64,000 nucleotides of DNA from Clostridia bacterium (GTDB taxonomy: Bacteria; Bacillota; Clostridia; UMGS1840). The translations under genes and the position numbers were made by a program. The notes below the pieces were generated by a model. That model saw nothing but the letters and a program-made list of their open reading frames with translations, was not told the origin of the DNA and did not search any database. The DNA lies in assembly GCA_045540295.1 (NCBI GenBank), contig JAZQGY010000015.1:523-64522 (forward strand), read 5' to 3'. How positions within the stretch are numbered: the stretch's first letter is position 1; every line of letters begins with the position of its first letter. Below, piece by piece: positions 25,437 through 51,364 of this stretch.

Positions 25437-25467
25437 CACTTAGCACAATATGCATTTGTCTTCGGGC

Positions 25468-26406: not shown

Positions 26407-27360
26407 CTAAAAAATCCTTTCTTCATTCAAATGGGCTTTGATGGCAAGCAATGTTCCCAGTACCGAAACGGCATAGTTTCCGTTTTGGGCAAGTGCTTTT
26501 GCCAGACGGGTGATTTCTTCATATAAAGCGGAGGCCTCTGCCAGACTGATTTTTGGCGTTTCCTCCCAGTCAGTATTTTTTCGGAGGGTTTTGTCCTCTA
26601 AAGAAGCATCGTAGATCAGGCTGGCAAAAACATCCAGCACTCTTGAAACTTCCTTTTCGTAAGTGTGAAAATCACGGTACAGGCGCACCACATCCTTGGC
26701 AGTGCGGTTTTTTAGGAGCAGTCCCCCATCCTGCAAAATGGTCTGACGCATGGTTTTGTAGTCCTCCGAACCGGCAAGAGACATTGCTTCGGTGAGGGAC
26801 CCTTTGGAAAGCGTGAGAATTTCCTCCGTGGGAACGGGTAACCGATGTTTCTCAAAATATTCTTTCAATTCCTTGGGCGTTAACTCGGGGCAACGAATTT
26901 TTACCCCACGGGACAAAATGGTGGGAAGAAGGCTCGCAAGGGAATTGGTCACCAATAAAATCACCGCATACTGAGGCGGTTCTTCAAACACTTTTAAAAG
27001 AGCATTTTGAGCACCCGCCGTCATTTTTTCGGCGTCTTTGATGAGATAAATTTTTTTGTGAAAATGAAACGGTTTTAAATAAATTTCAGTAGTCAATTCC
27101 CGAATCTGATTCACAGAAATCGAACGCTCACCTTCTAAAATATGAATATCCGAGGTGGAGTAAAACTGTTTGCAGGCAGAACAAACCCCGCAGGCCGTAC
27201 GGTTTTCACAAACAATGGCCTTGGCAAATTCCAGTGCCAGCGTGGTTTTGCCCACACCGTCGATGCCATGAAAAATATATGCATGGCTCAGCTTTCCCGT
27301 TTGAATTGCATTTTGCAATAGCCTTTTGGGAAGGGTTTGCCCGATTACTGCATCAAACAT
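26407..27360 (-). CDS. holB: DNA polymerase III subunit delta'
   Basis: HAYIFHGIDGVGKTT, zinc module CGVCSACKQ, and SRGV for the SRC-type motif. Confidence 0.85.
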   Translation of the reverse strand: MFDAVIGQTLPKRLLQNAIQTGKLSHAYIFHGIDGVGKTTLALEFAKAIVCENRTACGVCSACKQFYSTSDIHILEGERSISVNQIRELTTEIYLKPFHFHKKIYLIKDAEKMTAGAQNALLKVFEEPPQYAVILLVTNSLASLLPTILSRGVKIRCPELTPKELKEYFEKHRLPVPTEEILTLSKGSLTEAMSLAGSEDYKTMRQTILQDGGLLLKNRTAKDVVRLYRDFHTYEKEVSRVLDVFASLIYDASLEDKTLRKNTDWEETPKISLAEASALYEEITRLAKALAQNGNYAVSVLGTLLAIKAHLNEERIF

Positions 27361-27370
27361 TATTTTTTAA

Positions 27371-27560
27371 TCCTCGTCTTTCTTAGGATAATCGAAATTC
27401 TGATGTGTTCGTCTCTCTTAAAAACGGCTCTTCCAGAAGAATTTTGATCCTCGTCTTTCTTAAGGTAATCGAAATTCTGATGCGTTCGTCTCTCTTAAAA
27501 ACAGCTCTTCCAAAAGAATTTTGATCCTCGTCTTTCTTAGGATAATCAAAATTCTGAAAA
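27371..27560 (-). repeat. 2.4 tandem copies of a 77-bp unit forming the holB leader
   Basis: Unit starts at 27371, 27448 and 27525. Minus-sense unit: CAGAATTTCGATTATCCTAAGAAAGACGAGGATCAAAATTCTTTTGGAAGAGCTGTTTTTAAGAGAGACGAACGCAT. Confidence 0.85.
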
Positions 27561-28146: not shown

Positions 28147-29025
28147 TTAGTAAAGCACCTGCTGATTCCGTTTTTCACCTAAATAGCAAATCCCCACAAC
28201 TTCGGGACCTGCATTAATCACGATACAGGGGCCAATCAGCACGGTTTCCAACGGTTTTTCCTTGATGGTATCTTTGGCAAGCTTCATAAAATCCTTGCCG
28301 TCGTTCTTCCCGTGAAGCAGGATATATTTCTTGTCGGCTCCCATTCGTTCTGCCCCAATTTTGCAAAGCGTGTCCATAGCTTTGGGAATGCCTCGGACCT
28401 TCTGGCTGGTCACGGAATCTCCACCCGTTAAACACATAATGGGTTTAATCCCCAAAAGCTCTCCCGCAATGGCTGCTGCTCCGCCGATTCTGCCTGATTT
28501 TTTTGCATACTTCAAATCGTAAACGGTGAAGTACACTTCCAGACGGGTAAACCAGTCCTCCAGATAATTTAAAATAATTTCGGCAGGCTTGCCCTCTTTT
28601 GCCATTTTTGCCGCCGCAATCACTGGGTAACCGTAGCAATAGCTGTAAGAACCTGTATCCACCACGGTAATTTTCATTTTGCAGTCGGGCATGTCGCCGT
28701 AAAACATCTGGCGTGCCAGCTGGGCAGAATTATTGGTGGAAGAAGCCTTTCCGTTGATGGTAACGATAATCAGATCGGTCACATCGTCTTTGTATGCCGC
28801 TTTAATGGCATCTAAAAATTCAAAGGGAGGAATCTGTGCCGTGGTGGGAATTTCATCCCCATCGGGCAGAAGATTATAAAATTCCTCTTTGGTAAAATCG
28901 TAGGCTTCTTTATATTCTTTCTGATTCATGGTAATGGTCATGGGAAGCAACTGAATATCGTATTTTTGCGCAGTTTTTAAGTCGATATCACTTGCGGTGT
29001 CCACACAAATTCTGATGTTTGCCAT
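28147..29025 (-). CDS. DegV family fatty-acid-binding protein
   Basis: ICVDTASDI, TTAQIPP and an SGRIGGAAA-type C-terminal motif. Confidence 0.85.
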   Translation of the reverse strand: MANIRICVDTASDIDLKTAQKYDIQLLPMTITMNQKEYKEAYDFTKEEFYNLLPDGDEIPTTAQIPPFEFLDAIKAAYKDDVTDLIIVTINGKASSTNNSAQLARQMFYGDMPDCKMKITVVDTGSYSYCYGYPVIAAAKMAKEGKPAEIILNYLEDWFTRLEVYFTVYDLKYAKKSGRIGGAAAIAGELLGIKPIMCLTGGDSVTSQKVRGIPKAMDTLCKIGAERMGADKKYILLHGKNDGKDFMKLAKDTIKEKPLETVLIGPCIVINAGPEVVGICYLGEKRNQQVLY

Positions 29026-29240
29026 GTGCAGTTCTCTCCTTTTAAGAATCGGGATGTTTTATGATAATCCACAGTATATTATACTATAGATTTTCTAAAA
29101 TAGCAAGATGATTTTAAAATTTTTTTGGGCAACCGGGACAAACATTTTCACCTTTTTCAAAAAAATGGTTGAATTTTTGGGAAAACTATAGTATAATGAA
29201 GAGAAATCACAGATTTGATATCAGGAAAGGCGTGTTGATT

Positions 29241-30305
29241 ATGGAAATCACAATTACCAGAACCCAAACTCCCAAACAGAAACCCGACCAGTCCAACTTA
29301 GGCTTCGGTAAAATTTTTACCGACCATATGTTTGAAATGGAATATACCGAAGGAATCGGCTGGCACGATGCTAAAATCCTTCCCGTACATAATTTGAGCC
29401 TCCATCCTGCCTGCATGGTGTTCCACTACGGTCAGGAAATGTTTGAAGGCTTAAAAGCTTACCGCGGAAAAGATGGAAAAGTGCGTCTGTTCCGTCCCGA
29501 AATGAACGCAAAAAGAACCAACAACACCAATGACCGTCTCTGTATTCCCCACATTCCCGTGGAAGATTTTGTGGAAGCGGTAAAAGCTGTGGTAAAAGTG
29601 GATGAAGACTGGATTCCCACCGCAGACGGTACTTCTTTATACATCCGTCCCTTTATTATTGCAACCGACGAATTTTTAGGGGTTGCACCCTCTAAAACCT
29701 ACAAATTTATGATTATTCTGTCTCCCTCCGGTGCATACTACGCAAGCGGTTTGGCTCCCGTTGGCATCTGGATTGAAGACGAATACGTGCGTGCCGTAAA
29801 AGGCGGTATCGGCTTTGCCAAAACCGGCGGGAACTATGCTGCATCCTTAGCAGCTCAGGTAAAAGCTCACGATGACGGCTATTCCCAGGTATTATGGTTA
29901 GACGGTGTGGAACGAAAATACATTGAAGAAGTTGGCGCAATGAACATCTTCTTTAAAATTGACGGCAAAATTGTGACTCCTGCCTTAAACGGTTCTATTT
30001 TACCCGGTGTTACCCGTGACAGCGTAATCGCACTGTGTAAAAAAATGGGTCTGCCTGTGGAAGAAAGAAAAATCAGCGCAGAAGAACTGATTGCTGCTCA
30101 GAAAGCAGGAAAACTGGAAGAATGTTTCGGTTCCGGTACTGCAGCGGTAATTTCTCCTGTTGGCAAACTCCGTTACCAGAACGATGTAATGATTATCAAC
30201 AACAACGAAATCGGTCCCGTATCCCAGAAATTATACGATACCATCACCGGTATCCAGTGGGGTAAAATTGAAGACGATATGGGATGGACTGTGGAAGTGA
30301 AATAA
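29241..30305 (+). CDS. ilvE: Branched-chain amino acid aminotransferase
   Basis: FEGLKAYR, YIRPF, AKTGGNYAASL and GTAA motifs. Start at ATG 29241, behind AGGAAAGG. Confidence 0.88.
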   Translation: MEITITRTQTPKQKPDQSNLGFGKIFTDHMFEMEYTEGIGWHDAKILPVHNLSLHPACMVFHYGQEMFEGLKAYRGKDGKVRLFRPEMNAKRTNNTNDRLCIPHIPVEDFVEAVKAVVKVDEDWIPTADGTSLYIRPFIIATDEFLGVAPSKTYKFMIILSPSGAYYASGLAPVGIWIEDEYVRAVKGGIGFAKTGGNYAASLAAQVKAHDDGYSQVLWLDGVERKYIEEVGAMNIFFKIDGKIVTPALNGSILPGVTRDSVIALCKKMGLPVEERKISAEELIAAQKAGKLEECFGSGTAAVISPVGKLRYQNDVMIINNNEIGPVSQKLYDTITGIQWGKIEDDMGWTVEVK

Positions 30306-30404
30306 GTCCGGGCGGTTCCCTTAAGATACCAAAAAGCACAGGCACCAAAAAAATTCTGTGTTTTCCGATACCAAAAGAACCAAAAAAATCAGGAGTGTAG
30401 AGTT

Positions 30405-30965
30405 ATGCAGGTAAACGGCTTTAAAAAATCCATGTTCGGCGGCCTTAAAAAAGAGGAAGTGCTTTCCTATTTGGAGCAGATGTCCCGTGATGTGGAAGCA
30501 AAAATCCGCAATAAGGATGACGATATTCGTGAGCTGAAAAAGGAAGTTTCCGATAAAACAAACACCATTTCGGAATTAAAACAGCAGCTGGAAGATCAGA
30601 GGGCGTCCTACGAAGAAAAACTTGCCAACGAGCAAAAGGAAGCTGCCCAAAATTTGGAGCGCCTTCGTGAAGAATTCCGTAAGGAAAAAGAAGAAATGCA
30701 GGAAAAATTAAGCGACCTGAAGGCTCAGTTTACCTTGGAAAAGGAAAAAATCGGCCGTGCTTTGGTCACCGCAGAGGAAGCGGCAAACAAAATTCTTGCC
30801 GATGCAGGCAAAGAAGCCGACGAAATGATTGCCGAAGCCAAACGGAAAGTAGATGTGGAAAAAGAGCGCTACAAAAAACAAAAGGCAGATGTGACCGATT
30901 TTACCTATGATATTAAGAAGTTAATGGAAAAATTATCATCCGACTTAAAAGAACGTTTGGAATAA
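30405..30965 (+). CDS. DivIVA-like coiled-coil protein
   Basis: N-terminus FKKSMFGGLKKEEVLSYLEQM followed by an extended charged heptad-rich coiled coil. Confidence 0.5.
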   Translation: MQVNGFKKSMFGGLKKEEVLSYLEQMSRDVEAKIRNKDDDIRELKKEVSDKTNTISELKQQLEDQRASYEEKLANEQKEAAQNLERLREEFRKEKEEMQEKLSDLKAQFTLEKEKIGRALVTAEEAANKILADAGKEADEMIAEAKRKVDVEKERYKKQKADVTDFTYDIKKLMEKLSSDLKERLE

Positions 30966-30977
30966 TCGTTCTCTTGC

Positions 30978-31084
30978 GGCTTGACAAAAGGCGCAGAACC
31001 GTTAAACCTCATCACTCGGTAGGCCTTCGGATGACCCCTGTGGGTTCGGTTTTCCAATTCTGCATCCTTTTCTCTGCACCTTAC
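30978..31084 (+). repeat. R1 modular 3'UTR element (copy with the compensated AAAAGG/CCTTTT arms)
   Basis: GGCTTGACAAAAGGCGCAGAAC..AACCTCATCACTCGG..CTTCGG..GACCCCtgtGGGTT..ATTCTGCATCCTTTTCTCTGCACCTTAC. A terminator, AGGCAT..ATGCCTTTT, follows. Confidence 0.8.
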
Positions 31085-31186
31085 ATTTTTGTATGATATA
31101 GAAGGCATGGGATTTCCTATGCCTTTTCTTTTTTAGATAGATGTTCTTTTTCTTTGTTGCCAAAGAAAAGAATTTTTTAAAAATTC

Positions 31187-31215
31187 TTGCAAAATCGGTT
31201 TCGCTGTGTTATACT
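31187..31215 (+). promoter_or_regulatory. Sigma-A promoter (TTGCAA-17-TATACT) for gpsA
   Basis: TTGCAA at 31187-31192 and TATACT at 31210-31215. Confidence 0.7.
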
Positions 31216-31240
31216 GATAGTTGGAAAGGTGTTGATTGTT

Positions 31241-32239
31241 GTGAGTCGTATCGCAATTTTAGGCTCCGGCAGTTGGGGCTGTGCCCTTGCACATACATTA
31301 TCCGGACGTAATGATGTAATCATCTGGTCTTTTTTCCCGGCGGAAACTGAAGAATTAACCCGTTATCGGGAAAACAGAAAGTTTTTGCCCGGTGTGATAT
31401 TAGAAGAACCGATTTCTTTTACAAATGATATCAAAGAAGCAGTGGCAGACGCGGATTTTATCGTGTTTGCAGTGCCGTCTTTTGCGATTCGTTCCACGGC
31501 GAAAACCGTGGCTCCCTTATTCCAACCCGAAAAGCAGATCGCTGTTTGTGTTGCAAAGGGGCTGGAGGAGGATACCCTTTTTACCTTATCAGAAGTAATT
31601 ACCGATGAATTACCCAAAGGCAGCCATGTTTGTGCTTTATCGGGACCTACTCACGCAGAAGAAGTGGGGCGGGATCTTCCCACCACCATTGTGGCGGCTT
31701 GTCCCCAAGAAGAGGTATCGTTGGCTGTGCAATATGCCTTTATGAATGAAAAATTCCGTGTGTATACCTCCACCGACAGTAAGGGTGTGGAGCTTGGCGG
31801 CACGGTAAAAAATATCATTGCCCTTTGCGCCGGCATTTCCGACGGTTGCGGTTTTGGTGACAATGCCAAAGCGGCGCTGATGACCCGCGGAATGTATGAA
31901 ATCGCCAAATTGGGTGTGGCAATGGGCGGCAAAGTGGAAACCTTTTACGGGCTGTCCGGTATGGGTGATTTAATTGTTACCTGCACCAGTATGCATTCCA
32001 GAAACCGCCGTTGCGGGATGTTAATCGGTCAGGGAATGAGTCCCAAAAACGCTATGGACGAAGTGAATATGGTAGTGGAAGGCATCAAATGCTTAAAAGC
32101 CGTGTATAAAGCCTCCCAGAAGTTCAAGGTTTCTATGCCGATTATCAGCGAAGCTTATCAGATTGTATACGAAGGGAAAAATCCCAAGGAATCCGCCATC
32201 GGGTTAATGAACCGTGATAAAAAGGCGGAACGCTCCTAA
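31241..32239 (+). CDS. gpsA: NAD(P)H-dependent glycerol-3-phosphate dehydrogenase
   Basis: IAILGSGSWG, GPTHAEEV and NRRCG motifs. The GTG 31241 start is inferred from the position of GGAAAGGTG. Confidence 0.85.
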   Translation: MSRIAILGSGSWGCALAHTLSGRNDVIIWSFFPAETEELTRYRENRKFLPGVILEEPISFTNDIKEAVADADFIVFAVPSFAIRSTAKTVAPLFQPEKQIAVCVAKGLEEDTLFTLSEVITDELPKGSHVCALSGPTHAEEVGRDLPTTIVAACPQEEVSLAVQYAFMNEKFRVYTSTDSKGVELGGTVKNIIALCAGISDGCGFGDNAKAALMTRGMYEIAKLGVAMGGKVETFYGLSGMGDLIVTCTSMHSRNRRCGMLIGQGMSPKNAMDEVNMVVEGIKCLKAVYKASQKFKVSMPIISEAYQIVYEGKNPKESAIGLMNRDKKAERS

Positions 32240-32273
32240 AAATATCCAAGAAAGAACGGTGTAACCGTGCGGG

Positions 32274-33224
32274 GTGATCGAAATGTACAGCATTTATAAA
32301 TCCTTTGACGGAAAAATTCAGCAGATTTCAGCACTTGAAAAGGACTGCTGGATTAATTTCGTTGATCCTGACGATAAGGACACCCGTTTTCTGACCCAGG
32401 AACTTGGCATTGACCCTGATTTTATTCGTTCCTCCTTGGACGAAGAAGAAATGTCACGTGTTGAAACCGACGATAACGGCACCACCTTAATCATCGTGGA
32501 TATCCCTGCTCCCGAAAAAGAGGAGCACGTAGGGAACACCATTTTGTTTGAAACGCTGCCTTTATCCATTATTTTACACAAAGATTATATCATCACCATT
32601 TGCAACGATGAAACCGCAATTTTAAAAGCGTTTACCGATGGCGTAGTCAAACAGGTACATACTTATATGAAGACCCGTTTCATCCTGCAGATTTTATACC
32701 GTGTGGCAAGTAAATACCTGTTTTACTTAAAACAGATTGATAAAATTTCAAGCTATGTGGAACGGCAGTTGCACCGTTCCATGAAGAATAAAGAGTTAAT
32801 TCAGTTATTGGATTTGGAAAAATCTCTGGTATTCTTCTCCACCTCCCTGAAGGCAAACGAAATCACCATGCAGAAAATCCGTCGGGGAAAATTTATCCGT
32901 TTGTATGAAGAAGACGAAGACCTTTTGGAAGATGTGTTAATTGAAACCAACCAGGCAATTGAAATGGCAAGTATTCATTCCAACATTTTGTCGGGAATGA
33001 TGGATGCTTTTGCTTCGGTTATTTCCAACAACTTAAACATTGTAATGAAGGTGCTGGCATCCGTCACCATCCTGATGGCGATTCCAAACATCGTTACCTC
33101 TTTTTACGGTATGAACATCCAAGGCGGTATTCCCCTGGACCAGTTCTGGTGGTTCCCTCTGGTAATTTCCGTGGTTGCCATCTGTGCGGCTGCGTGGATT
33201 TTAATTAAAAAAGATATGCTCTAG
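32274..33224 (+). CDS. corA: CorA-family magnesium/cobalt transporter
   Basis: YGMN signature (SFYGMNIQGG) before the last TM helix. The start could be GTG 32274 or ATG 32283. Confidence 0.85.
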   Translation: MIEMYSIYKSFDGKIQQISALEKDCWINFVDPDDKDTRFLTQELGIDPDFIRSSLDEEEMSRVETDDNGTTLIIVDIPAPEKEEHVGNTILFETLPLSIILHKDYIITICNDETAILKAFTDGVVKQVHTYMKTRFILQILYRVASKYLFYLKQIDKISSYVERQLHRSMKNKELIQLLDLEKSLVFFSTSLKANEITMQKIRRGKFIRLYEEDEDLLEDVLIETNQAIEMASIHSNILSGMMDAFASVISNNLNIVMKVLASVTILMAIPNIVTSFYGMNIQGGIPLDQFWWFPLVISVVAICAAAWILIKKDML

Positions 33225-33282
33225 GTCGTAATCCTTCATTCTATCGGCTCCATTCGTACGGTAAAAATCGAAAAAACCATCC

Positions 33283-33308
33283 AAAACCCTTGATTTTCAA
33301 GGGTTTTT
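33283..33308 (+). terminator. Intrinsic terminator after corA
   Basis: AAAACCCTTGA ttt TCAAGGGTTTT. Confidence 0.8.
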
Positions 33309-33363
33309 GCATAAACAGAAAAATCACGAAAAATTTACTGAAAAAAGGAATTTTTTTACAAAA

Positions 33364-34668
33364 ATGAAAACTTTTCGCATCGTCACCTTAGGGTGCAAGG
33401 TAAATCAGTATGAATCAGAAGCTTTGGCACAGCAATTCCAACAAGCGGGCTACCGTCCTGCCAAAAAGGGAGAGGCTGCGTCTGTTTCCGTTGTAAATAC
33501 CTGCTCGGTAACCAATATGAGTGACCGAAAATCCCGAAAGCTGATTCGCCAATGCACAAAGGACAGCGACTTTGTTGCCGTTTGCGGCTGCTATGCCCAG
33601 GCAAAACCGGAGGAAGCTGCCCAAATCGAAGGTGTAGACTTGGTTATCGGAAACGGGGATAAACACCGTCTCTTCAGCAAAATCGAAGCAAAACTGCTAT
33701 CAAAGGAAATGGAAAAAATTTTCATTTCTGATTTAACGGCAGAAACTTCTTTTGATAAAGAACCTATCACGAACTATCGGGAAAAAACAAGAGCCATTTT
33801 AAAAATTCAGGACGGTTGCAATTCTTTCTGCTCTTATTGTATCATTCCTTATGTGAGAGGTCGGCTAAGAAGCCGAAATCCCTTGGAAATCCTGGAAGAA
33901 GCGAAGGCACTTGCCCAAAACGGATACCAAGAAATTGTGCTGGCAGGGATTCACGTTTGTAAATACGGAGCTGATTCTTCCGGCAATTCTCCCATCCGGG
34001 ATTTAACGGATTTACTGATAGAATTAGAAAAAATTGACGGGATTTGTCGAATCCGTTTAAGCTCAATCGAACCATTTGCATTCCACGAGAAGTTTTTTAC
34101 CTATTATAAAGATTCCAAAAAGCTTTGCCCGTCTTTTCATATCTCGCTACAAAGTGGCTCAGATATCATATTAAAAAAAATGAATCGGCATTACAGTGCA
34201 GAATACTATCAAAAAACTGTGGAAACTTTGCGGAAAATCAAGCCGGAAACCACGGTGACCACCGATGTAATTGTGGGATTCCCCGGGGAAGGGGAAGAAG
34301 AATTTCAGGAAACTCTTACCCTGATCAAAAAAGTGGGCTTTTTAAAAGTGCATACTTTTCCGTATTCCAGACGCTCCGGCACCGTGGCTGATGCCATGCC
34401 GGACCAGATTCCCCAAAATATCAAGGAGATTCGCAGCAAAGTGGTGTTAGAGCTGTCGAATCAGCAAGAGAAAGCAGTCTTAACAAACTTTATCGGAAAA
34501 CCCTTATTGGTTCTGGCAGAGGAAGAAAAACAGGGCGGTATGTACGGACTCAGCGAAAATCACCTTCCTGTGATTCTGGAAGGTGAAGGAATTTTAGAAA
34601 ACCGCATTTACCAAGTAACTCCCAACCGCACGGACGGAATGTTTCTTTATGCAAAAGTTTCCCAATAA
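33364..34668 (+). CDS. mtaB: tRNA t6A37 methylthiotransferase MtaB (radical SAM)
   Basis: TLGCKVNQYESE at the N-terminus. Radical-SAM CNSFCSYC. Start at ATG 33364. Confidence 0.85.
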   Translation: MKTFRIVTLGCKVNQYESEALAQQFQQAGYRPAKKGEAASVSVVNTCSVTNMSDRKSRKLIRQCTKDSDFVAVCGCYAQAKPEEAAQIEGVDLVIGNGDKHRLFSKIEAKLLSKEMEKIFISDLTAETSFDKEPITNYREKTRAILKIQDGCNSFCSYCIIPYVRGRLRSRNPLEILEEAKALAQNGYQEIVLAGIHVCKYGADSSGNSPIRDLTDLLIELEKIDGICRIRLSSIEPFAFHEKFFTYYKDSKKLCPSFHISLQSGSDIILKKMNRHYSAEYYQKTVETLRKIKPETTVTTDVIVGFPGEGEEEFQETLTLIKKVGFLKVHTFPYSRRSGTVADAMPDQIPQNIKEIRSKVVLELSNQQEKAVLTNFIGKPLLVLAEEEKQGGMYGLSENHLPVILEGEGILENRIYQVTPNRTDGMFLYAKVSQ

Positions 34669-34675
34669 CAACATC

Positions 34676-34712
34676 AAAAAAGCACGAAATCCCTTGAGAT
34701 TTCGTGCTTTTT
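34676..34712. terminator. Bidirectional terminator between convergent genes
   Basis: AAGCACGAAATC ccttga GATTTCGTGCTT, flanked by A- and T-runs. Confidence 0.8.
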
Positions 34713-34718
34713 AATATA

Positions 34719-34952
34719 TTATTCCTTTTTACCCAACCGACGGAAACAGCAATCTAAAAAAACTGCCCCCCATACACCCTGACTAACCAATATCACCGAA
34801 AGAATCAAAAGATACCTGGCAGCCGAAATATTCTGAAAAGCTCCCGCAACCAATATACCAACCAATATCAGAAGAATTGCTGCCCGAAAAAACCATCGGA
34901 GTAAAACAACACACCGTTTTTCCACGGTTTTTAATGCCTCTCTCATCTTCAT
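34719..34952 (-). CDS. Small two-TM membrane protein, unknown function
   Basis: 77 aa with two hydrophobic helices. GGGAGG lies upstream of the ATG. Confidence 0.5.
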   Translation of the reverse strand: MKMREALKTVEKRCVVLLRWFFRAAILLILVGILVAGAFQNISAARYLLILSVILVSQGVWGAVFLDCCFRRLGKKE

Positions 34953-35011
34953 ACAATCCTCATACCTCCCATTATTACTTCATGTATCAGACTTTTCAGG
35001 TTCCTTAAAAA

Positions 35012-35027
35012 TGTTCCACGGGGAACA
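35012..35027. promoter_or_regulatory. parS site 1 (TGTTCCACGGGGAACA)
   Basis: 16-bp near-palindrome matching the Firmicute parS consensus TGTTNCACGTGAAACA at 13 of 16 positions. Confidence 0.8.
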
Positions 35028-35153
35028 ATTTTAAAAGAAAGAACCGTCTTCATAAAAAATTTATTTTTTTATGAAAAACTATAGACTTTTTTGCCGTATT
35101 GTGATACAATAATCGGTACCCACCTATTTTTTAGATGGAAAATGTGCCGTTTT

Positions 35154-35169
35154 TGTTCCACGGGGAACA
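35154..35169. promoter_or_regulatory. parS site 2 (TGTTCCACGGGGAACA)
   Basis: Identical 16-mer. Confidence 0.8.
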
Positions 35170-35199
35170 ATTTTGGCAGAAATTACATAAAAAGCAGGA

Positions 35200-35215
35200 T
35201 GTTCCACGGGGAACA
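35200..35215. promoter_or_regulatory. parS site 3 (TGTTCCACGGGGAACA)
   Basis: Identical 16-mer, 45 nt upstream of the parA start. Confidence 0.8.
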
Positions 35216-35259
35216 TTTGAGATTTTTACATACTGTGTATCACAGGAAAGGGCAAAAAA

Positions 35260-36024
35260 ATGGGAAAAATTATTGCAGTTGCCAATCAGAAGGGCGGCGT
35301 TGGAAAAACCACTTCCGCCATTAATATTGCGGCTTGCTTAGGGCATTTTGGCAAAAAGGTTCTGCTCATTGATGCTGACCCCCAGGGAAATGCAACCAGC
35401 GGCGTAGGCGTGGATAAGGAAAGTGTGGAAACCTCTTTCTACGATGTGCTGATCGGAAACGAGCCCATCGAAAAATCTGTTATTGCAACCAACTTCAAAA
35501 ATCTTTGGGTCTGCCCTTGCAACATTGAACTGGCAGGCGCTGAGGTGGAACTGGTAGGAGTAAATGACCGTGAATTTCAGTTTTCCAAGTCATTAGAACC
35601 CATTCGGAATGTGTATGATTTCGTGATTGTGGACTGTCCGCCCTCATTGGGGTTAATCACCATCAACATTTTATCCGGTTCCGATTCCATTGTGATTCCG
35701 CTCCAGTGCGAATATTTTGCTTTGGAGGGACTCAGTCAGCTGATGAATACCCTAAGGAAAATTAAATCCCGTTACAATGAAGGCTTAGAGGTAGAAGGAG
35801 TTGTACTGACAATGTATGACGGCAGAACCAACTTAACCCTTCAGGTAGCAGGGGAAATTAAAAAGTATTTTGGAGAAAAGGTATTTAAATCACCGGTTCC
35901 CAGAAGTGTGCGATTGGGAGAAGCCCCCAGCTACGGAGAACCTATTTTATATTATGATAAACGTTCTCACTGCACAGAGGCCTATCTGAGAATCGCCCAG
36001 GATATTATAGATCACAACAAGTAA
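35260..36024 (+). CDS. parA: ParA/Soj chromosome partitioning ATPase
   Basis: Deviant Walker A: KGGVGKTT. Confidence 0.9.
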   Translation: MGKIIAVANQKGGVGKTTSAINIAACLGHFGKKVLLIDADPQGNATSGVGVDKESVETSFYDVLIGNEPIEKSVIATNFKNLWVCPCNIELAGAEVELVGVNDREFQFSKSLEPIRNVYDFVIVDCPPSLGLITINILSGSDSIVIPLQCEYFALEGLSQLMNTLRKIKSRYNEGLEVEGVVLTMYDGRTNLTLQVAGEIKKYFGEKVFKSPVPRSVRLGEAPSYGEPILYYDKRSHCTEAYLRIAQDIIDHNK

Positions 36025-36067
36025 TGCTGTTTTGCGGATAAAACAGGAAAAGAGAGGATATGAAACT

Positions 36068-36919
36068 ATGATGAAAAAAGGCGGACTTGGCCGGGGTCTT
36101 TCATCTTTGTTGGAAGAAAAGATTGAAACCGGTTCCGGACGCGTAAACGAGCTTTCCATTATGGATATTGAGCCCAATCCCGCACAGCCCAGAAAGGATT
36201 TTTCGGAAGAAGGCTTGCAGGCATTGGCAGATTCCATTGCGGAGGTGGGAGTATTATCTCCGATTTTAGTCAGACAAAAAGACAACGGTTTATATGAAAT
36301 TATTGCAGGAGAGCGCCGTTGGCGGGCTTCCAAATTGGCAGGAAAGAAGAAAATTCCCGCTATTGTGAAGGATTATAAAACAAAAGAAGTGATGGAAATT
36401 GCCTTAATTGAAAACCTTCAAAGGGAGGATTTAAACCCCTTGGAAGAAGCAATGGGCTACCAGACCTTAAAGGAACAGTTCGGATTAACCCAGGAAGAAA
36501 TCGCAAAACGGGTATCCAAAAGCCGTTCCACCGTTGCCAACATTTTAAGAATTTTAAATCTGCCGGATTTTGTGCTCCGGGAAATCAAGGCAGGGAAGGT
36601 AAGCTTAGGACATGCAAAAGCGCTTTCTTCCTTGGAATCAGATGAATCCAAAAAACTGCTCCTGTATGAAATTGTGAAAAATGAGATTTCCGTTCGGGAT
36701 GCGGAAGAGCTTGCGAAAAAGCTATCTCAGAAGAAACGTACCAACTTAATTAAAAAAACCTTGAAAAAAGACCCCAACCTGATTGAAGTGGAATCTCAGC
36801 TGACCAAAAAGTTTGGCACCAAGGTGCAAATTAAAAGCGGCAAAATCAAAAGCAAAATTGAGATCGAGTACTACTCACAGGATGACTTAAAACGAATCAT
36901 TGATACTTTTTTGGAGTAG
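36068..36919 (+). CDS. parB: ParB/Spo0J chromosome partitioning protein
   Basis: GLGRGLSSLL, IIAGERRWRA and an HTH (QEEIAKRVSKSRSTVANILRIL). Start at ATG 36068. Confidence 0.9.
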   Translation: MMKKGGLGRGLSSLLEEKIETGSGRVNELSIMDIEPNPAQPRKDFSEEGLQALADSIAEVGVLSPILVRQKDNGLYEIIAGERRWRASKLAGKKKIPAIVKDYKTKEVMEIALIENLQREDLNPLEEAMGYQTLKEQFGLTQEEIAKRVSKSRSTVANILRILNLPDFVLREIKAGKVSLGHAKALSSLESDESKKLLLYEIVKNEISVRDAEELAKKLSQKKRTNLIKKTLKKDPNLIEVESQLTKKFGTKVQIKSGKIKSKIEIEYYSQDDLKRIIDTFLE

Positions 36920-37013
36920 CCGAATTATTTCAAGATAGTTTCGGGATATTTTTCGGAAAACATACCATACAAAATAAGAAAAAGAACTGAAAAAATTGTA
37001 CCAAATATTGAGC

Positions 37014-37042
37014 TTGACGGCTCAAAAGCCATAAGATATAAT
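37014..37042 (+). promoter_or_regulatory. Sigma-A promoter (TTGACG-17-TATAAT) for serS
   Basis: TTGACG at 37014-37019 and TATAAT at 37037-37042. The leader is only about 40 nt, which leaves no room for a T-box. Confidence 0.75.
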
Positions 37043-37044
37043 AG

Positions 37045-38358
<1,314 letters not shown>

Positions 38359-38444
38359 TAAAGAATAAAAAAGTTGCGGTGGCAGGTTTTGCCTGCATGA
38401 CAATGCATCCAATCAGTGCCACCAATTCTGCTTTATTCTTGAAA

Positions 38445-38668
38445 CGACTTTGGATAGTGCCATACCAAAAATAATGGCGAGGTACTACCTATAAAGCTTC
38501 TGTATTCTTCGGATAGTGCCATACCAAAAACAACGGCGAGATACTGTGTATAAAGTTTTCTCAATCTTCAGATAGTGCCATACCAAAATAAAGGCGAGGT
38601 ACTACCTATAAAGTTTTCTCAATCTTCGGATAGTGCCATACCAAAAAAGTGGTATACCAAAAAAAGTC
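38445..38668 (+). repeat. Origin array U: 3.5 tandem units of 58-59 bp upstream of dnaA
   Basis: The core GGATAGTGCCATACCAAAAA starts at 38452, 38511, 38570 and 38628. The second half of each unit is GGCGAGGTACTACCTATAAAG. Confidence 0.88.
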
Positions 38669-38756
38669 AAGAGGCAAATGAAAAATAAAAAATATTATTA
38701 TGATAATTATTATGTAAACCATGAAATGTGAAAAACCTTAGGAATTATGGGAAAGG

Positions 38757-38801
38757 TTTTCCACATAAAATTGAAAAATATTCCACAAAAAATGTGGATA
38801 A
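38757..38801. promoter_or_regulatory. DnaA-box cluster upstream of dnaA
   Basis: TTTTCCACA at 38757, TATTCCACA at 38779, and a perfect TGTGGATAA at 38793-38801. Confidence 0.75.
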
Positions 38802-38825
38802 ATCCAAAAAATGAGGTGAAATCAC

Positions 38826-40145
38826 TTGTTTAGTGTATCAGAACTCTACGAAAATGTAGTAGACATAATAAAAAGCGAAATTTCCCCGGTAGCATACAGC
38901 ACCTGGTTTTCCTCTGTTACCCCGGAAAAAATTGAAAACAACATCTTTTATTTCCGTGTTCCCATTGAATATACTCGCGATATGATTGAAAGAAAATACT
39001 CTGAACTGTTAAAAACTGCGGTGGTAACTGCATCTCAGGGACAGATTGCCGATTTTTCGTTCCTGGTGGACGACAGAAGAAACACTCCTTCTGTGTTAGA
39101 CCGGTTCTCCAATACCCAGGATGAAGTATCCACCCTAAACAAAAAATATACTTTCCAGAATTTTGTCATTGGCGAATCCAACCGTTTTGCCCATGCAGCA
39201 GCCATTGCTGTGGCAGAAAGTCCGGCAGAAAATTATAATCCTTTATTTATATACGGCGGTGTTGGTCTGGGAAAAACCCATTTGTTACATGCAATCGGTA
39301 ACCGAATTAAAGAAAACGATCCTACAAAAAAAGTGTTATACTTAACTTCAGAATCCTTCACCAATGAATTTATTGATTCCATTAAATCCGGTCAGAATAC
39401 CGCATTCCGTGATAAACTTCGCAACATTGATGTATTGATGGTAGACGACATTCAGTTTATTGGCGGAAAAGAAGGGACTCAGGAAGAATTTTTCCATACC
39501 TTCAACCATTTATATCAGAACGATAAACAGATTGTGTTATCCTCTGACCGTCCACCAAAAGATATCAGAACGTTGGAAGAAAGACTTCGAACCCGTTTTG
39601 AAGCAGGCTTGATGTGTGACATTAATGCTCCTGACTTAGAAACCAGAATTGCAATTTTAAAGAAAAAAACAGAAGAAGAAAATTTCCCTATTGACGATGA
39701 AATCATCCAGTTTATTGCATCTAAAATCAGATCTAATGTTCGTGAGCTGGAAGGAATCTTCACCCGTCTGGTTGCCTTAACAAAGCTTTCTAAAAAAGAA
39801 ATTACCAAAGAATTGGCAGAAGATGTGATCAAGGTCATCATTGCAGATTCTAAAAAGGCAAAACCCGGCATTGAAACGGTAATGGTGGAAACTGCAGGTT
39901 ACTTTAATATTGATCCACAGCTTTTAAAATCATCTTCCAAAAAGAAAGAAATCGTAAAAGCACGACAGGTGGCAATGTTTTTGGCAAGAGAAGTGCTGGA
40001 AATGAGTACCACCAAAATCGGTGAAGAATTTGAAAGAGACCATTCCACCGTGATGTATTCCATTGAAAAAATTAAAGAAACCCGTCAGACAGACGCTTAT
40101 ATTGATACCATTATTGAGGAAATCACCGGCCTCTTAGAAGATTAA
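38826..40145 (+). CDS. dnaA: Chromosomal replication initiator protein DnaA
   Basis: GGVGLGKTHLLHAIGN Walker A, a box VII-type arginine region, and the C-terminal DNA-binding domain DHSTVMYSIEKI. TTG start. Confidence 0.95.
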   Translation: MFSVSELYENVVDIIKSEISPVAYSTWFSSVTPEKIENNIFYFRVPIEYTRDMIERKYSELLKTAVVTASQGQIADFSFLVDDRRNTPSVLDRFSNTQDEVSTLNKKYTFQNFVIGESNRFAHAAAIAVAESPAENYNPLFIYGGVGLGKTHLLHAIGNRIKENDPTKKVLYLTSESFTNEFIDSIKSGQNTAFRDKLRNIDVLMVDDIQFIGGKEGTQEEFFHTFNHLYQNDKQIVLSSDRPPKDIRTLEERLRTRFEAGLMCDINAPDLETRIAILKKKTEEENFPIDDEIIQFIASKIRSNVRELEGIFTRLVALTKLSKKEITKELAEDVIKVIIADSKKAKPGIETVMVETAGYFNIDPQLLKSSSKKKEIVKARQVAMFLAREVLEMSTTKIGEEFERDHSTVMYSIEKIKETRQTDAYIDTIIEEITGLLED

Positions 40146-40435
40146 TTTTTTTAGTATAACACTATTATAAGATAGCAATAACTTAAAAATTTGTTTTTCT
40201 ATTATTTGATACCCTCTTTTTTAGTATAACACTATTATGAAATAGCAGAAACTTAATAATTTATTTTTCTATTATCTGATACCCTCTTTTTGGGATAACA
40301 CTATTATGAGATAGCAAAAACTTAAAAGAAATTTTTCGATTCATTGTTACCTTTTTTGGGATAACTCTTTTATAAGATTGTATGAATTTGAAAAATAATA
40401 CTTCTACTATTTGATACCCTCTATCATACTTTTGT
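40146..40435 (-). repeat. Origin array M: 4 tandem units (70/70/66 bp), inverted relative to U and D
   Basis: Units start at 40152, 40222, 40292 and 40358. The reverse complement of a unit, ATAATAGTGTTATACTAAAAAA, aligns with GGATAGTGCCATACCAAAAA of U. Units end in TTGATACCCTC. Confidence 0.8.
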
Positions 40436-40549
40436 ACTGAAAAAGAAGGTTCTTACATAGAGAAAACCGTAAACATGTTACTGCTATTATATATATAGTA
40501 TAATGGATTTTCATTGTAAAAAATAACACATCAAAAAAAATTCTACAGA

Positions 40550-40900
40550 ATTTGGGGATAAGTGTTGTGGAAACGAAAAAAATTCCTGTGCAATTTGATA
40601 GGGTTCTCCACATCTATGGTTGACAGAAAAATTTCATTCTCCAAAAAAAACAAAAAAATCCACAAAGTAATACACATTCCCACAGGGAAAACCGATGAAA
40701 AAGCTGTGGATAAAAACTCCCCATTTCATGCTATGTGGAAAGCAATCATTTTATGCACAAATTGTTATAAAAGTTATAAACTGTAAAAACTCTGATATTT
40801 CAGGGGTATCAAAGACTTTTCAACAATTCCCCAGCCCCTATTACAATATACTGTTTATCCTTATTTATTTTCCTTTCTATTATCCTGATTGATTTTGACA
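40550..40900. other. oriC core: DnaA-box cluster plus an AT-rich stretch in the dnaA-dnaN spacer
   Basis: TGGGGATAA at 40553, TTCTCCACA at 40604, AAATCCACA at 40656, a perfect TGTGGATAA at 40705-40713, and TGTGGAAAG at 40734. AT-rich sequence runs from 40741 to 40900. Confidence 0.7.
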
Positions 40901-40969
40901 TTTTAAAAATCACTGTTTTTAGAAATCGTCATTCAAAAACTGATAGCAAGGTAAGAATTTATTATTTGT

Positions 40970-41180
40970 ACAATCTTCGGATAATGTCATACTAAAAAAA
41001 TGCGAGGTACTATCTATCAAGTTTCTATATCCTTTGGATAGAGCCATACTAAAAAAAATGCGTGGTACTATCTATAAAGCTTCTGTATCCTTTGGATAGA
41101 GCCATACCAAAAAATATTTGCGAGACAATATTTTATTAATTGTACTATTTTAGAATAGTGCTATACCAAAAAAAGAGGAT
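40970..41180 (+). repeat. Origin array D: 3.5 tandem units of 57-59 bp upstream of dnaN (same family and orientation as U)
   Basis: Cores are GGATAATGTCATACTAAAAAAA at 40979, GGATAGAGCCATACTAAAAAAAA at 41036, GGATAGAGCCATACCAAAAAA at 41094, and GAATAGTGCTATACCAAAAAAA at 41153. Confidence 0.88.
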
Positions 41181-41262
41181 CAAATTATTTTGATACTTAT
41201 AAACCTATGATAGACGGATGTCTTACAATTTTGATAAACCTAAGAAAGACGAGGATTAAAAA

Positions 41263-42357
41263 ATGAAGTTTAGTTTTTTAAAAGAAGTGTTTTTGGAAAA
41301 TTTATCCACCGTGTTAAAAGCGGTATCCCCCAAAGCAACCGTTCCTCAGTTGGAAGGGGTATACATTTTAGCTCGCGGTAATATGATTACCTTAATCGGT
41401 AACAACACAGAAATTGCCATCAAAGCCCGTTTTGAAGCAGATGTGGAAGAAGAAGGTGTTGGCGTAATCAATGCCAAAAACTTATTTGATATGGTTCGTC
41501 TGATGCCGGAAGGAACGGTTAGTATTTCTGTGGATGAAAAACTGACTACCGTTATCAAATCCGGTGCTACCCGTTATGAAATTGTGGCAATGGATGCAGA
41601 AATGTTCCCTGTGGTGGAAGAATTAAACTGCGAATTCTCTTTAAAAATTACCGAACAGAAGTTAAAAGAGCTGATTAAGAAAACTCTGTTTTCCATTGGT
41701 ACCCAAGATACCAAAATCACTTTTACCGGTGCTTTATTTGAAGTACGAGATAACGAATTGACCGTGGTTACCTTAGACGGTTACCGTATGGCAGTGAGAA
41801 AAGAAGAAATTTATCCTACCGGCGAAAACCGTTCTTATATCATTCCCGGTAAGAGCTTAAATGAACTTTTAAAAATCTTAGCAGACACCAAAGATGACAC
41901 CGTCATCGAATTTGGAGACAGAAAAGCATTGGTAAAACTGGATAACTACGAATTTTATACCAGATTAATTGACGGCGAATTCTTTAATTACGAACAGATT
42001 ATCCCCAAAAACGCAGAAATCAAAGTGAAAGCTGTAACCAAAGAGCTGGTGGAAGCGTTAGAGAGAGCATCTCTTTTAATTACTGCGGATAATAAAGCAC
42101 CTATCCGTATGCACCTAGAAGAGGATAAAATGCATTTCAATACCATTTCCAGAATCGGTCACGCTCAGGATATGATTCACATTGAAAAAACCGGTGACGA
42201 TTTGGAAATCGGCTTTAACCATAAGTTTTTGTTAGATGCCTTAAAAGCCTCTGAAACCGAAGAAATTTTCTTAGATTTCAGCAATAACTTAAGTCCCTGC
42301 ATTTTGCGTGGAGACAGTGACGAATTTTTGTATATGGTGTTACCTGTGCGATTATAG
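41263..42357 (+). CDS. dnaN: DNA polymerase III subunit beta (sliding clamp)
   Basis: 364 aa, a three-domain clamp, with C-terminal FLYMVLPVRL. Confidence 0.92.
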   Translation: MKFSFLKEVFLENLSTVLKAVSPKATVPQLEGVYILARGNMITLIGNNTEIAIKARFEADVEEEGVGVINAKNLFDMVRLMPEGTVSISVDEKLTTVIKSGATRYEIVAMDAEMFPVVEELNCEFSLKITEQKLKELIKKTLFSIGTQDTKITFTGALFEVRDNELTVVTLDGYRMAVRKEEIYPTGENRSYIIPGKSLNELLKILADTKDDTVIEFGDRKALVKLDNYEFYTRLIDGEFFNYEQIIPKNAEIKVKAVTKELVEALERASLLITADNKAPIRMHLEEDKMHFNTISRIGHAQDMIHIEKTGDDLEIGFNHKFLLDALKASETEEIFLDFSNNLSPCILRGDSDEFLYMVLPVRL

Positions 42358-44895: not shown

Positions 44896-45337
44896 CCTTC
44901 TCCTTTGAGGAGAAGGGGGACCGCTTGCGGTGGATGAGGTGTTTTGGAATGAATCCGTTTCAGAATCAAAAACTGACCGACAATGCCAAATCTTTACGAA
45001 AAGAAATGACGAAAGAAGAACGGCATTTATGGTATGATTTTTTAAAAACATTACCCGTTACTGTCCATCGGCAAAAAGTCATTGGAAGCTATATTGTGGA
45101 TTTTTATATCGCATCTGCCAAATTAGTGATTGAACTGGACGGTTCCCAGCATTTTGAAGATGGACATCAACTACGGGATATCAAAAGAGACGAATACCTG
45201 ATGAAATTAGGGATTCGGGTACTTCGATATACTAATTTAGAAATTCAAAAAAACTTTCAAGGTGTTTGTTTGGATATTGGAAACCATTTAGACACCTCAT
45301 CAGTCACTTCGTGACAGCTTCTCCTCAAGGAGAAGCC
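44895..45337 (+). mobile_element. DUF559 gene bounded by hairpin-bearing inverted ends (R2 full-length element)
   Basis: Left end: GCCTTCTCCTTTGAGGAGAAGGGGGACCGCTTGCGGTGGATGAGGTG. Right end: CACCTCATCAGTCACTTCGTGACAGCTTCTCCTCAAGGAGAAGCC. Miniature copies lie at 48548 and 63362. Confidence 0.55.
44949..45314 (+). CDS. DUF559 (Vsr/restriction-endonuclease-like fold) protein
   Basis: LRKEMTKEERHLWYDFLK..FHRQKVIGSYIVDFY..KLVIELDGSQH..RDEYL..G..VLR is typical DUF559. The last 8 codons and the stop lie inside the right terminal module. Confidence 0.8.
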   Translation: MNPFQNQKLTDNAKSLRKEMTKEERHLWYDFLKTLPVTVHRQKVIGSYIVDFYIASAKLVIELDGSQHFEDGHQLRDIKRDEYLMKLGIRVLRYTNLEIQKNFQGVCLDIGNHLDTSSVTS

Positions 45338-47477: not shown

Positions 47478-47515
47478 AATTTTGATTATCCTAACAGAGA
47501 CGAGGAGCAAAGAAA
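47478..47515 (+). promoter_or_regulatory. Shared leader module upstream of trpS
   Basis: AATTTTGATTATCCTAACAGAGACGAGGAGCAAAGAAA followed by the ATG. Compare 41227-41262 (dnaN) and 27361-27402 (holB, minus strand). Confidence 0.6.
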
Positions 47516-50953: not shown

Positions 50954-51250
50954 ACTAAAAAATTCCTTTTCTGTTAAGATGCAAAGCTCTCCCCGACCAG
51001 AAGCTGATGAGGGATTTTGCACTGATGTTTTCATGAATTGTTGCATCGGCAACATGATTTAAATTGCCTTTTCATGCACTTTTTTGCAATTCATAAGCCG
51101 TAAGGCATTCTTCATGAAATCTTTGATTTCAATTCATGCCGAAGGCAATTCATTGATTTCATCCTTAATGAAATCATTCTATCATATGAAATAAAAAAAT
51201 ACAAGTAATTCTCCCAAAAAAGTCGTGTCTTGTTTTGTTACCGTTTCTTT

Positions 51251-51290
51251 TGTCGAAAAGTTTTTCGATTTCTTCTCGGTTCCCGACAGA
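51251..51290 (+). promoter_or_regulatory. Spo0A-box-like sites upstream of spoIIE
   Basis: A perfect 0A box TGTCGAA at 51251-51257, with weaker TTCGATT at 51264 and CCCGACA at 51282. A TGcTATACT -10-like element lies at 51317-51325. Confidence 0.45.
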
Positions 51291-51364
51291 TTGCAACACC
51301 TTTTTCAGAAAACCTGTGCTATACTGATAAAAATTGGAAAAATTTGGAAAAAGGAGTGACTGCC

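Follow-up and report, generated by a model that had tools for sequence, protein, structure and literature searches.

The replication origin of a member of the Clostridia carries, on both sides of the initiator gene dnaA, a family of tandem repeats that does not consist of DnaA boxes. We analysed 64,000 nucleotides of this organism (Clostridia bacterium, GTDB lineage UMGS1840; assembly GCA_045540295.1, contig JAZQGY010000015.1, positions 523 to 64,522 of the forward strand), referred to here as the window. Three arrays of 58-70 bp units lie within it: array U upstream of dnaA, array M directly downstream of dnaA and inverted, and array D upstream of dnaN. Each unit contains a short core that, between species, is about as well conserved as the DnaA boxes of the same region. 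We tentatively propose that these cores are binding sites for a factor other than DnaA.

Repeat searches place the three arrays around dnaA where a first-pass annotation, made from the sequence alone, had put them. Tandem Repeats Finder reports U at 38448-38647 (period 59, 3.4 copies, 84% matches), M at 40147-40327 (period 70, 2.6 copies, 88% matches) and D at 40988-41114 (period 58, 2.2 copies, 91% matches). A repeat-family search returns one 32-nt family of eight copies, with spacings of 59/59/58 bp in U and 57/58/59 bp in D, and one 70-nt family of four copies, spaced 70/69/66 bp, in M. The 20-mer core GGATAGTGCCATACCAAAAA, with up to three mismatches allowed, matches eight times in 64 kb (0.02 in shuffled sequences), and these matches recover exactly all eight U and D core coordinates of the first-pass annotation. 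The reverse complement of M scores z = 13.6 in local alignment to D and z = 5.4 to U, while M in the plus orientation stays at background (z of about 0), and the homology among the three arrays extends over the whole unit, beyond the core. U, M and D are one repeat family, and M is its inverted member, as had been claimed. M begins at 40146, so that its first unit adjoins the dnaA stop codon ending at 40145, and the dnaA-dnaN spacer measures 1117 bp; both had been noted from the sequence. The corresponding spacers of relatives measure 363-864 bp, the relatives being a graded series of DnaA homologues from metagenome-assembled genomes (MAGs) of uncultured Clostridia, to which one locus, L046, was added from a DNA scan. 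The exact DnaA of the window, whether begun with L or M, is itself absent from the protein collection. Because the repeat family was recovered in independent assemblies from JGI, ENA and NCBI, the arrays are not an assembly artefact.

The family is restricted to the origin in every place where we could follow it. The degenerate core GTGYYATACYAAA, with at most one mismatch, matches 13 times in the 64 kb, all between 38457 and 41170 (0.6 in shuffled sequences); the arrays account for 12 of the 13, and the dnaA coding sequence for the other. This sole core-like 13-mer outside the arrays, GTGTTATACTTAA at 39333-39345, is preceded by an A-run and is probably a chance match. Significant matches to a profile hidden Markov model of the unit were limited to the serS-dnaA and dnaA-dnaN spacers, in the window and in the related loci L010, L001 and L046, and the degenerate core is confined to those two spacers in all related loci (up to ~21 kb each). 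Across 185,579 species genomes, the window's own genome not among them, the exact 17-mer ATAGTGCCATACCAAAA occurs at 45 loci. Single matches in unrelated phyla, at about the number expected by chance, account for 43 of these; the other two are dnaA loci of the related clade, and no other contig of those two genomes matched. Further, 2.9 million viral contigs hold no arrays, and their 84 single matches, never more than one per contig, read as chance; U and M have no BLAST match in 72,556 plasmids. A metagenome scan for two tandem cores returned one unrelated high-GC contig, the scan being insensitive enough to miss the JGI contigs that hold L001-L003. In the window, the related loci and the exact 17-mer scan, the family is origin-restricted rather than dispersed, and it lacks the many scattered copies of dispersed extragenic repeats such as repetitive extragenic palindromic sequences (REP), bacterial interspersed mosaic elements (BIME) or miniature inverted-repeat transposable elements (MITE).

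Conservation within the units is concentrated in the core, which reads (A)TAGTG-YY-ATAC-Y-AAAA and spans ~14-20 bp. In a seven-lineage alignment of serS-dnaA spacers, the 14-nt core GTGCCATACCAAAA is 87% identical between species, with a per-position identity of 85-90% in pairwise comparison of three aligned U cores; in the same alignment the DnaA-box/promoter block is 86% identical and the linkers between cores are 56% identical. At four-fold degenerate sites of dnaA, the relatives among these seven lineages are 45-67% identical to the window, and L001, L009 and L142/L143 are 64-72% identical to one another. Because these sites are so diverged, the relatives are not strains of one species. 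The same pattern holds inside the arrays, where neighbouring units are 89% identical in their cores versus 63% in their linkers. In L143, both linkers have diverged to noise (52%), while the cores are identical at 12-14 of 14 positions and lie 58 and 59 bp apart. The first M unit is kept over its full 70 bp within the clade and abuts the dnaA stop codon in every case. These data suggest that selection between species acts on the core and not on the linkers.

Array size differs from one relative to the next. Among eight lineages whose DnaA proteins are 92-95% identical, U holds 2-4 cores, M 1-4 units and D 0-4; across the relatives, periods of 58, 59, 62 and 67-71 bp occur in 0-4 copies. L010 (DnaA 95% identical to that of the window) has four U cores at 61-62 bp, about three M units and three D units, L142 (95%) has three U cores plus a partial one, 2-3 M units and 2-3 D units, and L046 (95%) has three, one and two, respectively. 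In L143/L144 (95%), three U cores and two M units are accompanied by at least one D unit, inside which the contig ends. L001-L003 (94-95%) carry three U cores, three M units and no D; L009 (93%) carries two U cores, two M units and, at the dnaN ribosome-binding site, one degenerate D core, GTGCGATTCC; L145 (92%) has 3-4 U cores and one M unit on a contig that ends before D. All three arrays are present in L010, L046 and L142; in L143, U and M are joined by one D unit or more. At least two U cores and at least one M unit are kept in 8/8 lineages of the clade. Complete MAGs with arrays are GCA_045580405.1, GCA_045591845.1, GCA_045631485.1, GCA_017549265.1 and GCA_052839145.1. The terminal D unit of L143, at which the contig breaks, is identical to its first U unit over 43 nt, indicating gene conversion between U and D. 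Short related contigs end in or just before M or D (L143, 5043; L144, 4467; L145, 4864), a practical warning that MAG assemblies of this clade break inside the arrays.

Outside the clade the layout is different. A sister lineage (L004/L005 and L011; DnaA 88-90%) has an array at the U position only, built on another core, GYGTCCCGAATTCTAAAA, with periods of 31-112 bp; GCA_045638525.1 and the ENA bins that contain L004/L005 have this second type of core. Its arrays lie at 9530-9840 in L004 and 9640-9840 in L011, contain a second block, CACGTGTTCCAATACGTAAAGGAAAC, and have no M or D counterparts; the L004 units resemble a sigma-H-type promoter (AAAGGAAAC, 12 nt, CCCGAAT), whose spacing is off by 3 nt in L011. 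No arrays were found in L006/L007 (88%), L008 (72%) or L146 (70%), despite recognisably the same DnaA boxes, DnaA-trio and promoter block; the MAG GCA_017936745.1 likewise lacks them. The arrays are clade-specific, and because L006, L008 and L146 lack them and L001 lacks D, the symmetric triple layout is not essential to the origin. Relatives with the same DnaA boxes and no arrays, which the first-pass annotation had foreseen as speaking against a function, do exist (L006, L008 and L146), but within the clade the cores are conserved like DnaA boxes.

The arrays enclose a basal origin that, judged by its sequence, is of the ordinary bipartite Firmicute type (Table 1). Clusters of DnaA boxes lie on both sides of dnaA, the upstream one with four sites of at most two mismatches versus 1.1 expected, and the dnaA-dnaN spacer holds a GC cluster, a DnaA-trio-like run and an AT-rich stretch. 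The oriC1 block comprises GTCAAGAGG (38666-38674), an AT-rich stretch, ATTATTATGTAAACC (38706-38720) and the DnaA boxes TTTTCCACA (38757), TATTCCACA (38779) and a perfect TGTGGATAA (38793), and ends with a ribosome-binding site, GAGGTGA, followed by the TTG start. Downstream of dnaA, TTTTCAACA follows the oriC2 boxes and precedes the GC cluster, and the A+T-rich stretch beyond the trio-like run is probably the unwinding element. U borders oriC1 on the left, M borders oriC2 on the left, and D starts at the end of the AT-rich stretch. A box scan agrees with the earlier observation that the DnaA-box clusters, both perfect boxes (38793 and 40705) and the AT-rich stretch sit between the arrays and not inside them, with one exception: a one-mismatch box, TGTGTATAA (38545), falls inside the second U unit. 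The block between M and the oriC2 boxes is near-invariant across eight lineages, as (T)ATATATAAT(A/G)GTATAA, and is promoter-like on both strands, the minus strand reading ATGAAA, 17 nt, TATAAT. Promoters here may read through oriC2 to dnaN, leftward through M and antisense to dnaA, or both.

Table 1. Features of the dnaA region, in coordinates of the window
Feature	Position	Strand	Description
Array U	38445-38668	+	Four full units, period 58-59 bp; 20-mer cores at 38452, 38511, 38570 and 38628
Partial fifth U core	38649-38665	+	GTGGTATACCAAAAAAA
oriC1 / dnaA control block	38666-38825	+	86% identity over seven lineages
dnaA	38826-40145	+	439 aa, TTG start; stop codon 40143-40145
Array M	40146-40421	-	Four units, spacings 70/69/66 bp, inverted member of the U/D family; fourth unit degenerate; minus-strand cores 40148-40167, 40218-40237, 40287-40306 and 40353-40372
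Block between M and oriC2 boxes	40478-40504		TTACTG, 15 nt, TATAAT within TATATATAGTATAAT
oriC2 DnaA-box cluster	40553-40825		10 sites of at most two mismatches versus 2.3 expected; perfect TGTGGATAA at 40705
GC cluster	40829-40838	+	CCCCAGCCCC
DnaA-trio-like run	40839-40853	+	TATTACAATATACTG
A+T-rich stretch	40854-40960	+	76% A+T; extends up to array D
Array D	40971-41176	+	Four units, period 57-59 bp, orientation of U; cores at 40979, 41036, 41094 and 41153
dnaN leader	41177-41262	+	Second, unrelated short repeat ATAAACCTAwGAwAGACG at 41199 and 41234
dnaN	41263-42357	+	Pfam

The gene order in the window is parA (35260), parB (36032), serS (37090-38358), dnaA and dnaN, followed by hisZ and hisG, and Pfam supports serS, dnaA and dnaN as the genes flanking the arrays. 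To the left of U is the serS terminator hairpin (~38378-38423), and to its right the conserved GTCAAGAGG that opens the dnaA promoter-DnaA-box block. Beyond the last D core come an A-run and a Shine-Dalgarno-like GAGGA.

Because the core is conserved and asymmetric while its linkers drift, because the arrays hold three fixed positions (one of them inverted) and are restricted to the origin, and because the sister lineage has a different core, we lean towards reading the cores as accessory, iteron-like binding sites for a sequence-specific factor other than DnaA, with copies gained and lost by unequal recombination. We hold this reading with less than even confidence. A different origin-binding regulator was one of the options raised by the first-pass annotation, and it is the one we favour, since cores within the clade are conserved like DnaA boxes (87% versus 86%); the regulator itself would be a putative protein. 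Each core would be recognised by the factor, with the iteron-like logic of many copies of one site beside the origin and on both sides of the initiator gene. Sites at the outer edges of both DnaA-box clusters, with D abutting the predicted unwinding element, would allow initiation to be modulated; sites upstream of the dnaA control block, of the promoter-like block at 40478-40504 and of the dnaN ribosome-binding site would allow dnaA and dnaN expression to be modulated. From these positions, the factor would modulate initiation, dnaA/dnaN expression, or both, and it might do so by occlusion, by bridging the sites of the three arrays or by insulating the unwinding region. Unequal recombination or slippage would alter copy number and unit length, and gene conversion would pass sequence between U and D. 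In L004 and L011, the different core at the U position is what might be expected of a site that co-evolves with its binder.

A more specific form of this proposal, which we regard as somewhat doubtful, is that a clade-specific origin protein on the outer flanks of oriC1 and oriC2 bridges or insulates the two halves of the origin and so sets initiation frequency or dnaA/dnaN expression. U and M would then serve as flanks of dnaA, and M and D as flanks of the DnaA boxes and the unwinding element. Such a system would be a chromosomal counterpart of plasmid iteron control laid over a DnaA-dependent origin, with the L004/L011 core reflecting co-evolution of protein and site.

Several observations weigh against the binding-site reading. 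Copy number is labile in all three arrays, and an origin can do without them, since L006, L008 and L146 have the same DnaA-box clusters and no arrays. Many bacterial proteins that bind DNA as dimers need a site with dyad symmetry, and the core shows no clear one. Besides the core, units appear to carry passengers, namely an A-run and a Shine-Dalgarno-like GAGG of the kind found at the dnaN ribosome-binding site, which suggests that stretches of DNA were duplicated and that sites were not selected one by one. The contrast between cores and linkers is weakened by the fact that cores were partly selected by similarity and that the aligner anchors on them. Scans with degenerate motifs covered the window and the related loci, so that a few diverged copies elsewhere in the genome are possible. 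Finally, no candidate binding protein was found, and nothing in the window co-varies with the arrays.

Lability, dispensability and passenger sequence are what one would expect if the units were functionless tandem duplications of the variable-number tandem repeat (VNTR) type, in which an ancestral functional sequence at each site (for instance, the element that immediately precedes the dnaN ribosome-binding site) multiplied through slippage or unequal recombination and spread among the three arrays through ectopic recombination. Relatives differ in copy number and period, L001 has no D and L006, L008 and L146 have no arrays; the last D core, 20-27 nt upstream of the dnaN ATG, and the Shine-Dalgarno-like sequence in the units fit such an origin, as do another tandem leader duplication in the window, at holB, and the conversion tract by which the L143 D unit equals its first U unit over 43 nt. 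We nevertheless consider this explanation unlikely: neutral copies should decay evenly, whereas non-terminal cores remain 85-90% identical between species and linkers 56%, approximately the synonymous level, and conversion tracts would have homogenised the linkers along with the cores. Further, U with at least two cores and at least one M unit persist in 8/8 lineages. Units might instead be promoter or 5' leader modules: the core would serve as a TG-extended -10-like element or as an RNA motif, with an A-run and a Shine-Dalgarno-like sequence behind it. On this view, dnaA and dnaN transcripts would be driven by U and D or include them, the same would hold for M and a transcript antisense to dnaA, and divergent transcription from M and D, which point away from oriC2 on either side of the DnaA boxes and AT-rich stretch, could help to open the origin through negative supercoiling. 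M cores do read TGTTATACT, that is TGnTATACT, an extended -10-like sequence; many cores have a TTG-containing hexamer 15-17 nt upstream (TTGTAC, TTGAAA at the first U unit, TTGCAC in L142), in L010, L046 and L142 the dnaN ribosome-binding site directly follows the last D core, and an antisense RNA that controls DnaA has been described in B. subtilis (PMC12112137). Most cores, however, read CATACC and lack the essential final T of a -10 element, that position varying among C, T and A. A consensus scan found 14 sites versus 13.8 expected, none of them a repeat unit, and the motif, being present at none of the other genes in the 64 kb, does not represent a general type of promoter. Relatives differ in the Shine-Dalgarno-like part (GGCAAGAC in L001 and L143, ACAGATAC in L009), RNA folds are inconsistent between units, and M cores show no complementary co-variation with U and D cores between genomes. 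Measured against sigma-70-type promoters (-35 and -10 elements 16-18 nt apart, with A2 and T6 of the -10), only the M cores come near, as extended -10-like sequences, and we judge a promoter or leader role quite improbable.

Two further origins for the units had been put forward in the first-pass annotation, and neither stands up well. If the units were phased low-affinity DnaA sites that extend or titrate a DnaA oligomer, their 5' flank TT(C/T)GGATA(A/G), which matches 6-8 of 9 DnaA-box positions in the window, L010 and L046, would be the relevant part. The third and fourth M units read TTGGGATAA, each window array has 2-3 sites of at most two mismatches versus about one expected, and L010 U has three one-mismatch sites; the enrichment in the window arrays, however, amounts to only 1-2 standard deviations. 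The box-like flank is not conserved, and on this the proposal fails: GGATA(A/G) is replaced by CAAAAG or TTGCTCT in L001, L142 and L143 and by CAAAG or TTGTTCT in L009, next to an intact core, and in the U arrays of L001 and L143 every 9-mer differs from a DnaA box at three or more positions. The part that is conserved, GTGCCATACC, fits the box at only ~4 of 9 positions, and the box-like segment is placed differently within the unit in U/D than in M. As the arrays do not hold conserved 9-mers within 1-2 mismatches of TTATCCACA, we consider it very unlikely that the units are DnaA sites. Colonisation of the origin by a selfish or mobile element, whether REP- or MITE-like or the remnant of a plasmid or phage origin, would account for three nearby sites in both orientations and for the movement of unit sequences between U and D. 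Yet no copy lies beyond the two spacers in the window or the related loci, no terminal inverted repeats or target-site duplications accompany the units, neither arrays in viral contigs nor BLAST matches in plasmids were found, and no rep, transposase or integrase gene is adjacent, so that this origin is extremely improbable.

Other classes of repeat or signal also fail to describe the arrays. Because the periods are not multiples of 3, the arrays are non-coding. Rfam has no match in them at the gathering threshold or at E <= 1, no intrinsic terminators were called within units, and an RNA hairpin per unit is not supported: z is about -2 for the first and third U and second D units, a hairpin is absent from the second U, the first and third D and all M units, and values range from -2.4 to +1.1 with no shared fold, so that the units show neither an Rfam match nor a conserved fold of a structured RNA family. 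Pairing of M with U or D in one RNA was also considered; 24 of 29 positions are complementary between the first M and first D units, but they do not co-vary across genomes. The arrays are not clustered regularly interspaced short palindromic repeats (CRISPR), as the sequences between cores are repeated too (whole units have 84-91% matches) and cas genes are absent. Nor are they plasmid-type iterons: there is no rep gene and no plasmid similarity, the initiator is DnaA, and the units are 58-70 bp long with a 14-20 bp core. The 16-bp parS palindrome TGTTNCACGTGAAACA of ParB centromeres is unmatched in the arrays, as is the TGTCGAA of a Spo0A box. By eye, none of the NrdR, AbrB, WalR and VirR boxes, the sigma-E, -G, -K, -H, -D, -B and -54 promoters or a tRNA 3' end fits all three arrays. 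A-tract phasing was rejected too, periods of 58-71 bp corresponding to 5.5-6.8 helical turns with no consistent phase.

Several other features of the window and its relatives were recorded. The dnaN leader shares ~40 nt, up to the ATG, with the leader of holB, including the exact 18-mer CCTAAGAAAGACGAGGAT (41239-41256 in the dnaN leader). holB, for the DNA polymerase III delta' subunit, lies at 26407-27360 on the minus strand (Pfam PF13177), and a 77-bp tandem repeat (27365-27557, minus strand, 2.5 copies, 92% matches) is directly upstream of it. With three mismatches, the 18-mer recurs at 47490-47507, just upstream of a class I (Trp/Tyr-type) tRNA synthetase gene at 47516, and it has five matches versus 0.05 expected. 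Replication genes could share it as a leader or ribosome-binding-site motif that is prone to tandem duplication, and a stem ATCCT...AGGAT could sequester the Shine-Dalgarno sequence. Within 250 bp upstream of parA lie three identical parS-like near-palindromes, TGTTCCACGGGGAACA (35012-35027, 35154-35169 and 35200-35215), probably a site of ParB loading or autoregulation; they have no relation to the array core. The coding strand switches, and the cumulative GC skew has its minimum, at ~29025-29169, about 9-10 kb to the left of dnaA (38826), so that some nine genes (29169-38358, including parA, parB and serS) would be head-on to a fork moving leftward from oriC. Gene order upstream of parA varies among relatives, which suggests rearrangements beside the origin. 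A small DUF559/restriction-endonuclease-like gene (PF04480) occupies varying intergenic positions downstream of dnaN, at 44925-45314 in the window, 18760-19125 in L009, 15843-16208 and 19416-19805 in L010 (two copies) and 15365-15718 in L011, and may be a mobile, homing-type gene. An ordinary tandem glycine riboswitch with two aptamers (Rfam RF00504) lies at 25246-25439 on the minus strand, upstream of a minus-strand gene ending at 25151. A degenerate 9/18/27-bp tandem repeat (AGAAGCAAA and variants; 51433-51561) inside an 852-aa open reading frame (51230-53788) presumably gives rise to a low-complexity segment rich in Lys and Glu.

Accounts of bacterial chromosomal origins generally list DnaA boxes, DnaA-trios, an unwinding element and a few sites for known regulators such as Spo0A, SeqA, IHF and CtrA. 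In this clade, an origin-only motif that is not a DnaA box is conserved like one and occurs in multiple copies at three positions around dnaA in several species. A limited full-text search of the literature turned up neither such arrays at a chromosomal oriC nor any oriC with the triple-array layout, in keeping with the first-pass annotation, which knew of none. If a protein binds the cores, it would represent a new, lineage-specific layer of control over replication or over dnaA and dnaN in uncultured Clostridia, and the arrays would be the bait with which to find it; if nothing binds, the arrays would be a clear case of long-lived tandem-repeat turnover beside an essential origin.

Plasmid iterons flank the initiator gene in P1 (incC-repA-incA) and mini-F (ori2-repE-incC), where copy number counts through titration and handcuffing; they are 17-22 bp sites for the adjacent Rep protein, spaced ~22-33 bp apart. 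The arrays resemble them in placing copies of one short site by the origin and again beyond the initiator gene, and differ from them in that the initiator is DnaA, the core is not its box and the spacing is 58-70 bp. Some plasmid centromeres consist of long tandem repeats, such as F sopC, with 12 copies of a 43-bp unit carrying an inverted repeat bound by SopB, and pB171 parC1 and parC2, which flank the par operon. Here too, units of tens of base pairs, each with one (in our case putative) short site, are repeated in tandem, and the pB171 arrays flank an operon; unlike sopC, the window arrays have no conserved dyad, and the nearby ParB has separate parS-like palindromes. The E. coli datA and DARS loci, chromosomal clusters of genuine DnaA boxes outside the origin that control DnaA, would be comparable, under the reading of the cores as sites for a non-DnaA factor, as accessory cis elements that modulate initiation outside the minimal origin, whereas the arrays are not made of DnaA boxes. 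Intergenic VNTRs share with the arrays a head-to-tail arrangement, a copy number that differs between relatives and a tendency for assemblies to break inside them, but not a core conserved among species near synonymous saturation, nor a family kept at three sites with one inverted.

As a whole, the region belongs with the bipartite origins of Firmicutes, such as B. subtilis incA/incB-dnaA-incC and C. difficile oriC1-dnaA-oriC2, in which DnaA-box clusters likewise flank dnaA. In oriC2 of C. difficile, and in other clostridia, a GC cluster is followed by a trio such as CACCTACTACTATTACTACTATGA and then by the unwinding element (PMC7561715), and the window has the same order of GC cluster, DnaA-trio-like run and AT-rich stretch in its dnaA-dnaN spacer. 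The genes upstream are parA-parB-serS here and not rnpA-rpmH. The described bipartite origins comprise DnaA boxes, trios and unwinding elements, with Spo0A boxes in addition in B. subtilis, whereas here three arrays of 58-70 bp repeats that are not DnaA boxes are added at the edges. The novelty of this origin lies in that addition, a conserved non-DnaA repeat system joined to a known type of DnaA-dependent bipartite origin.

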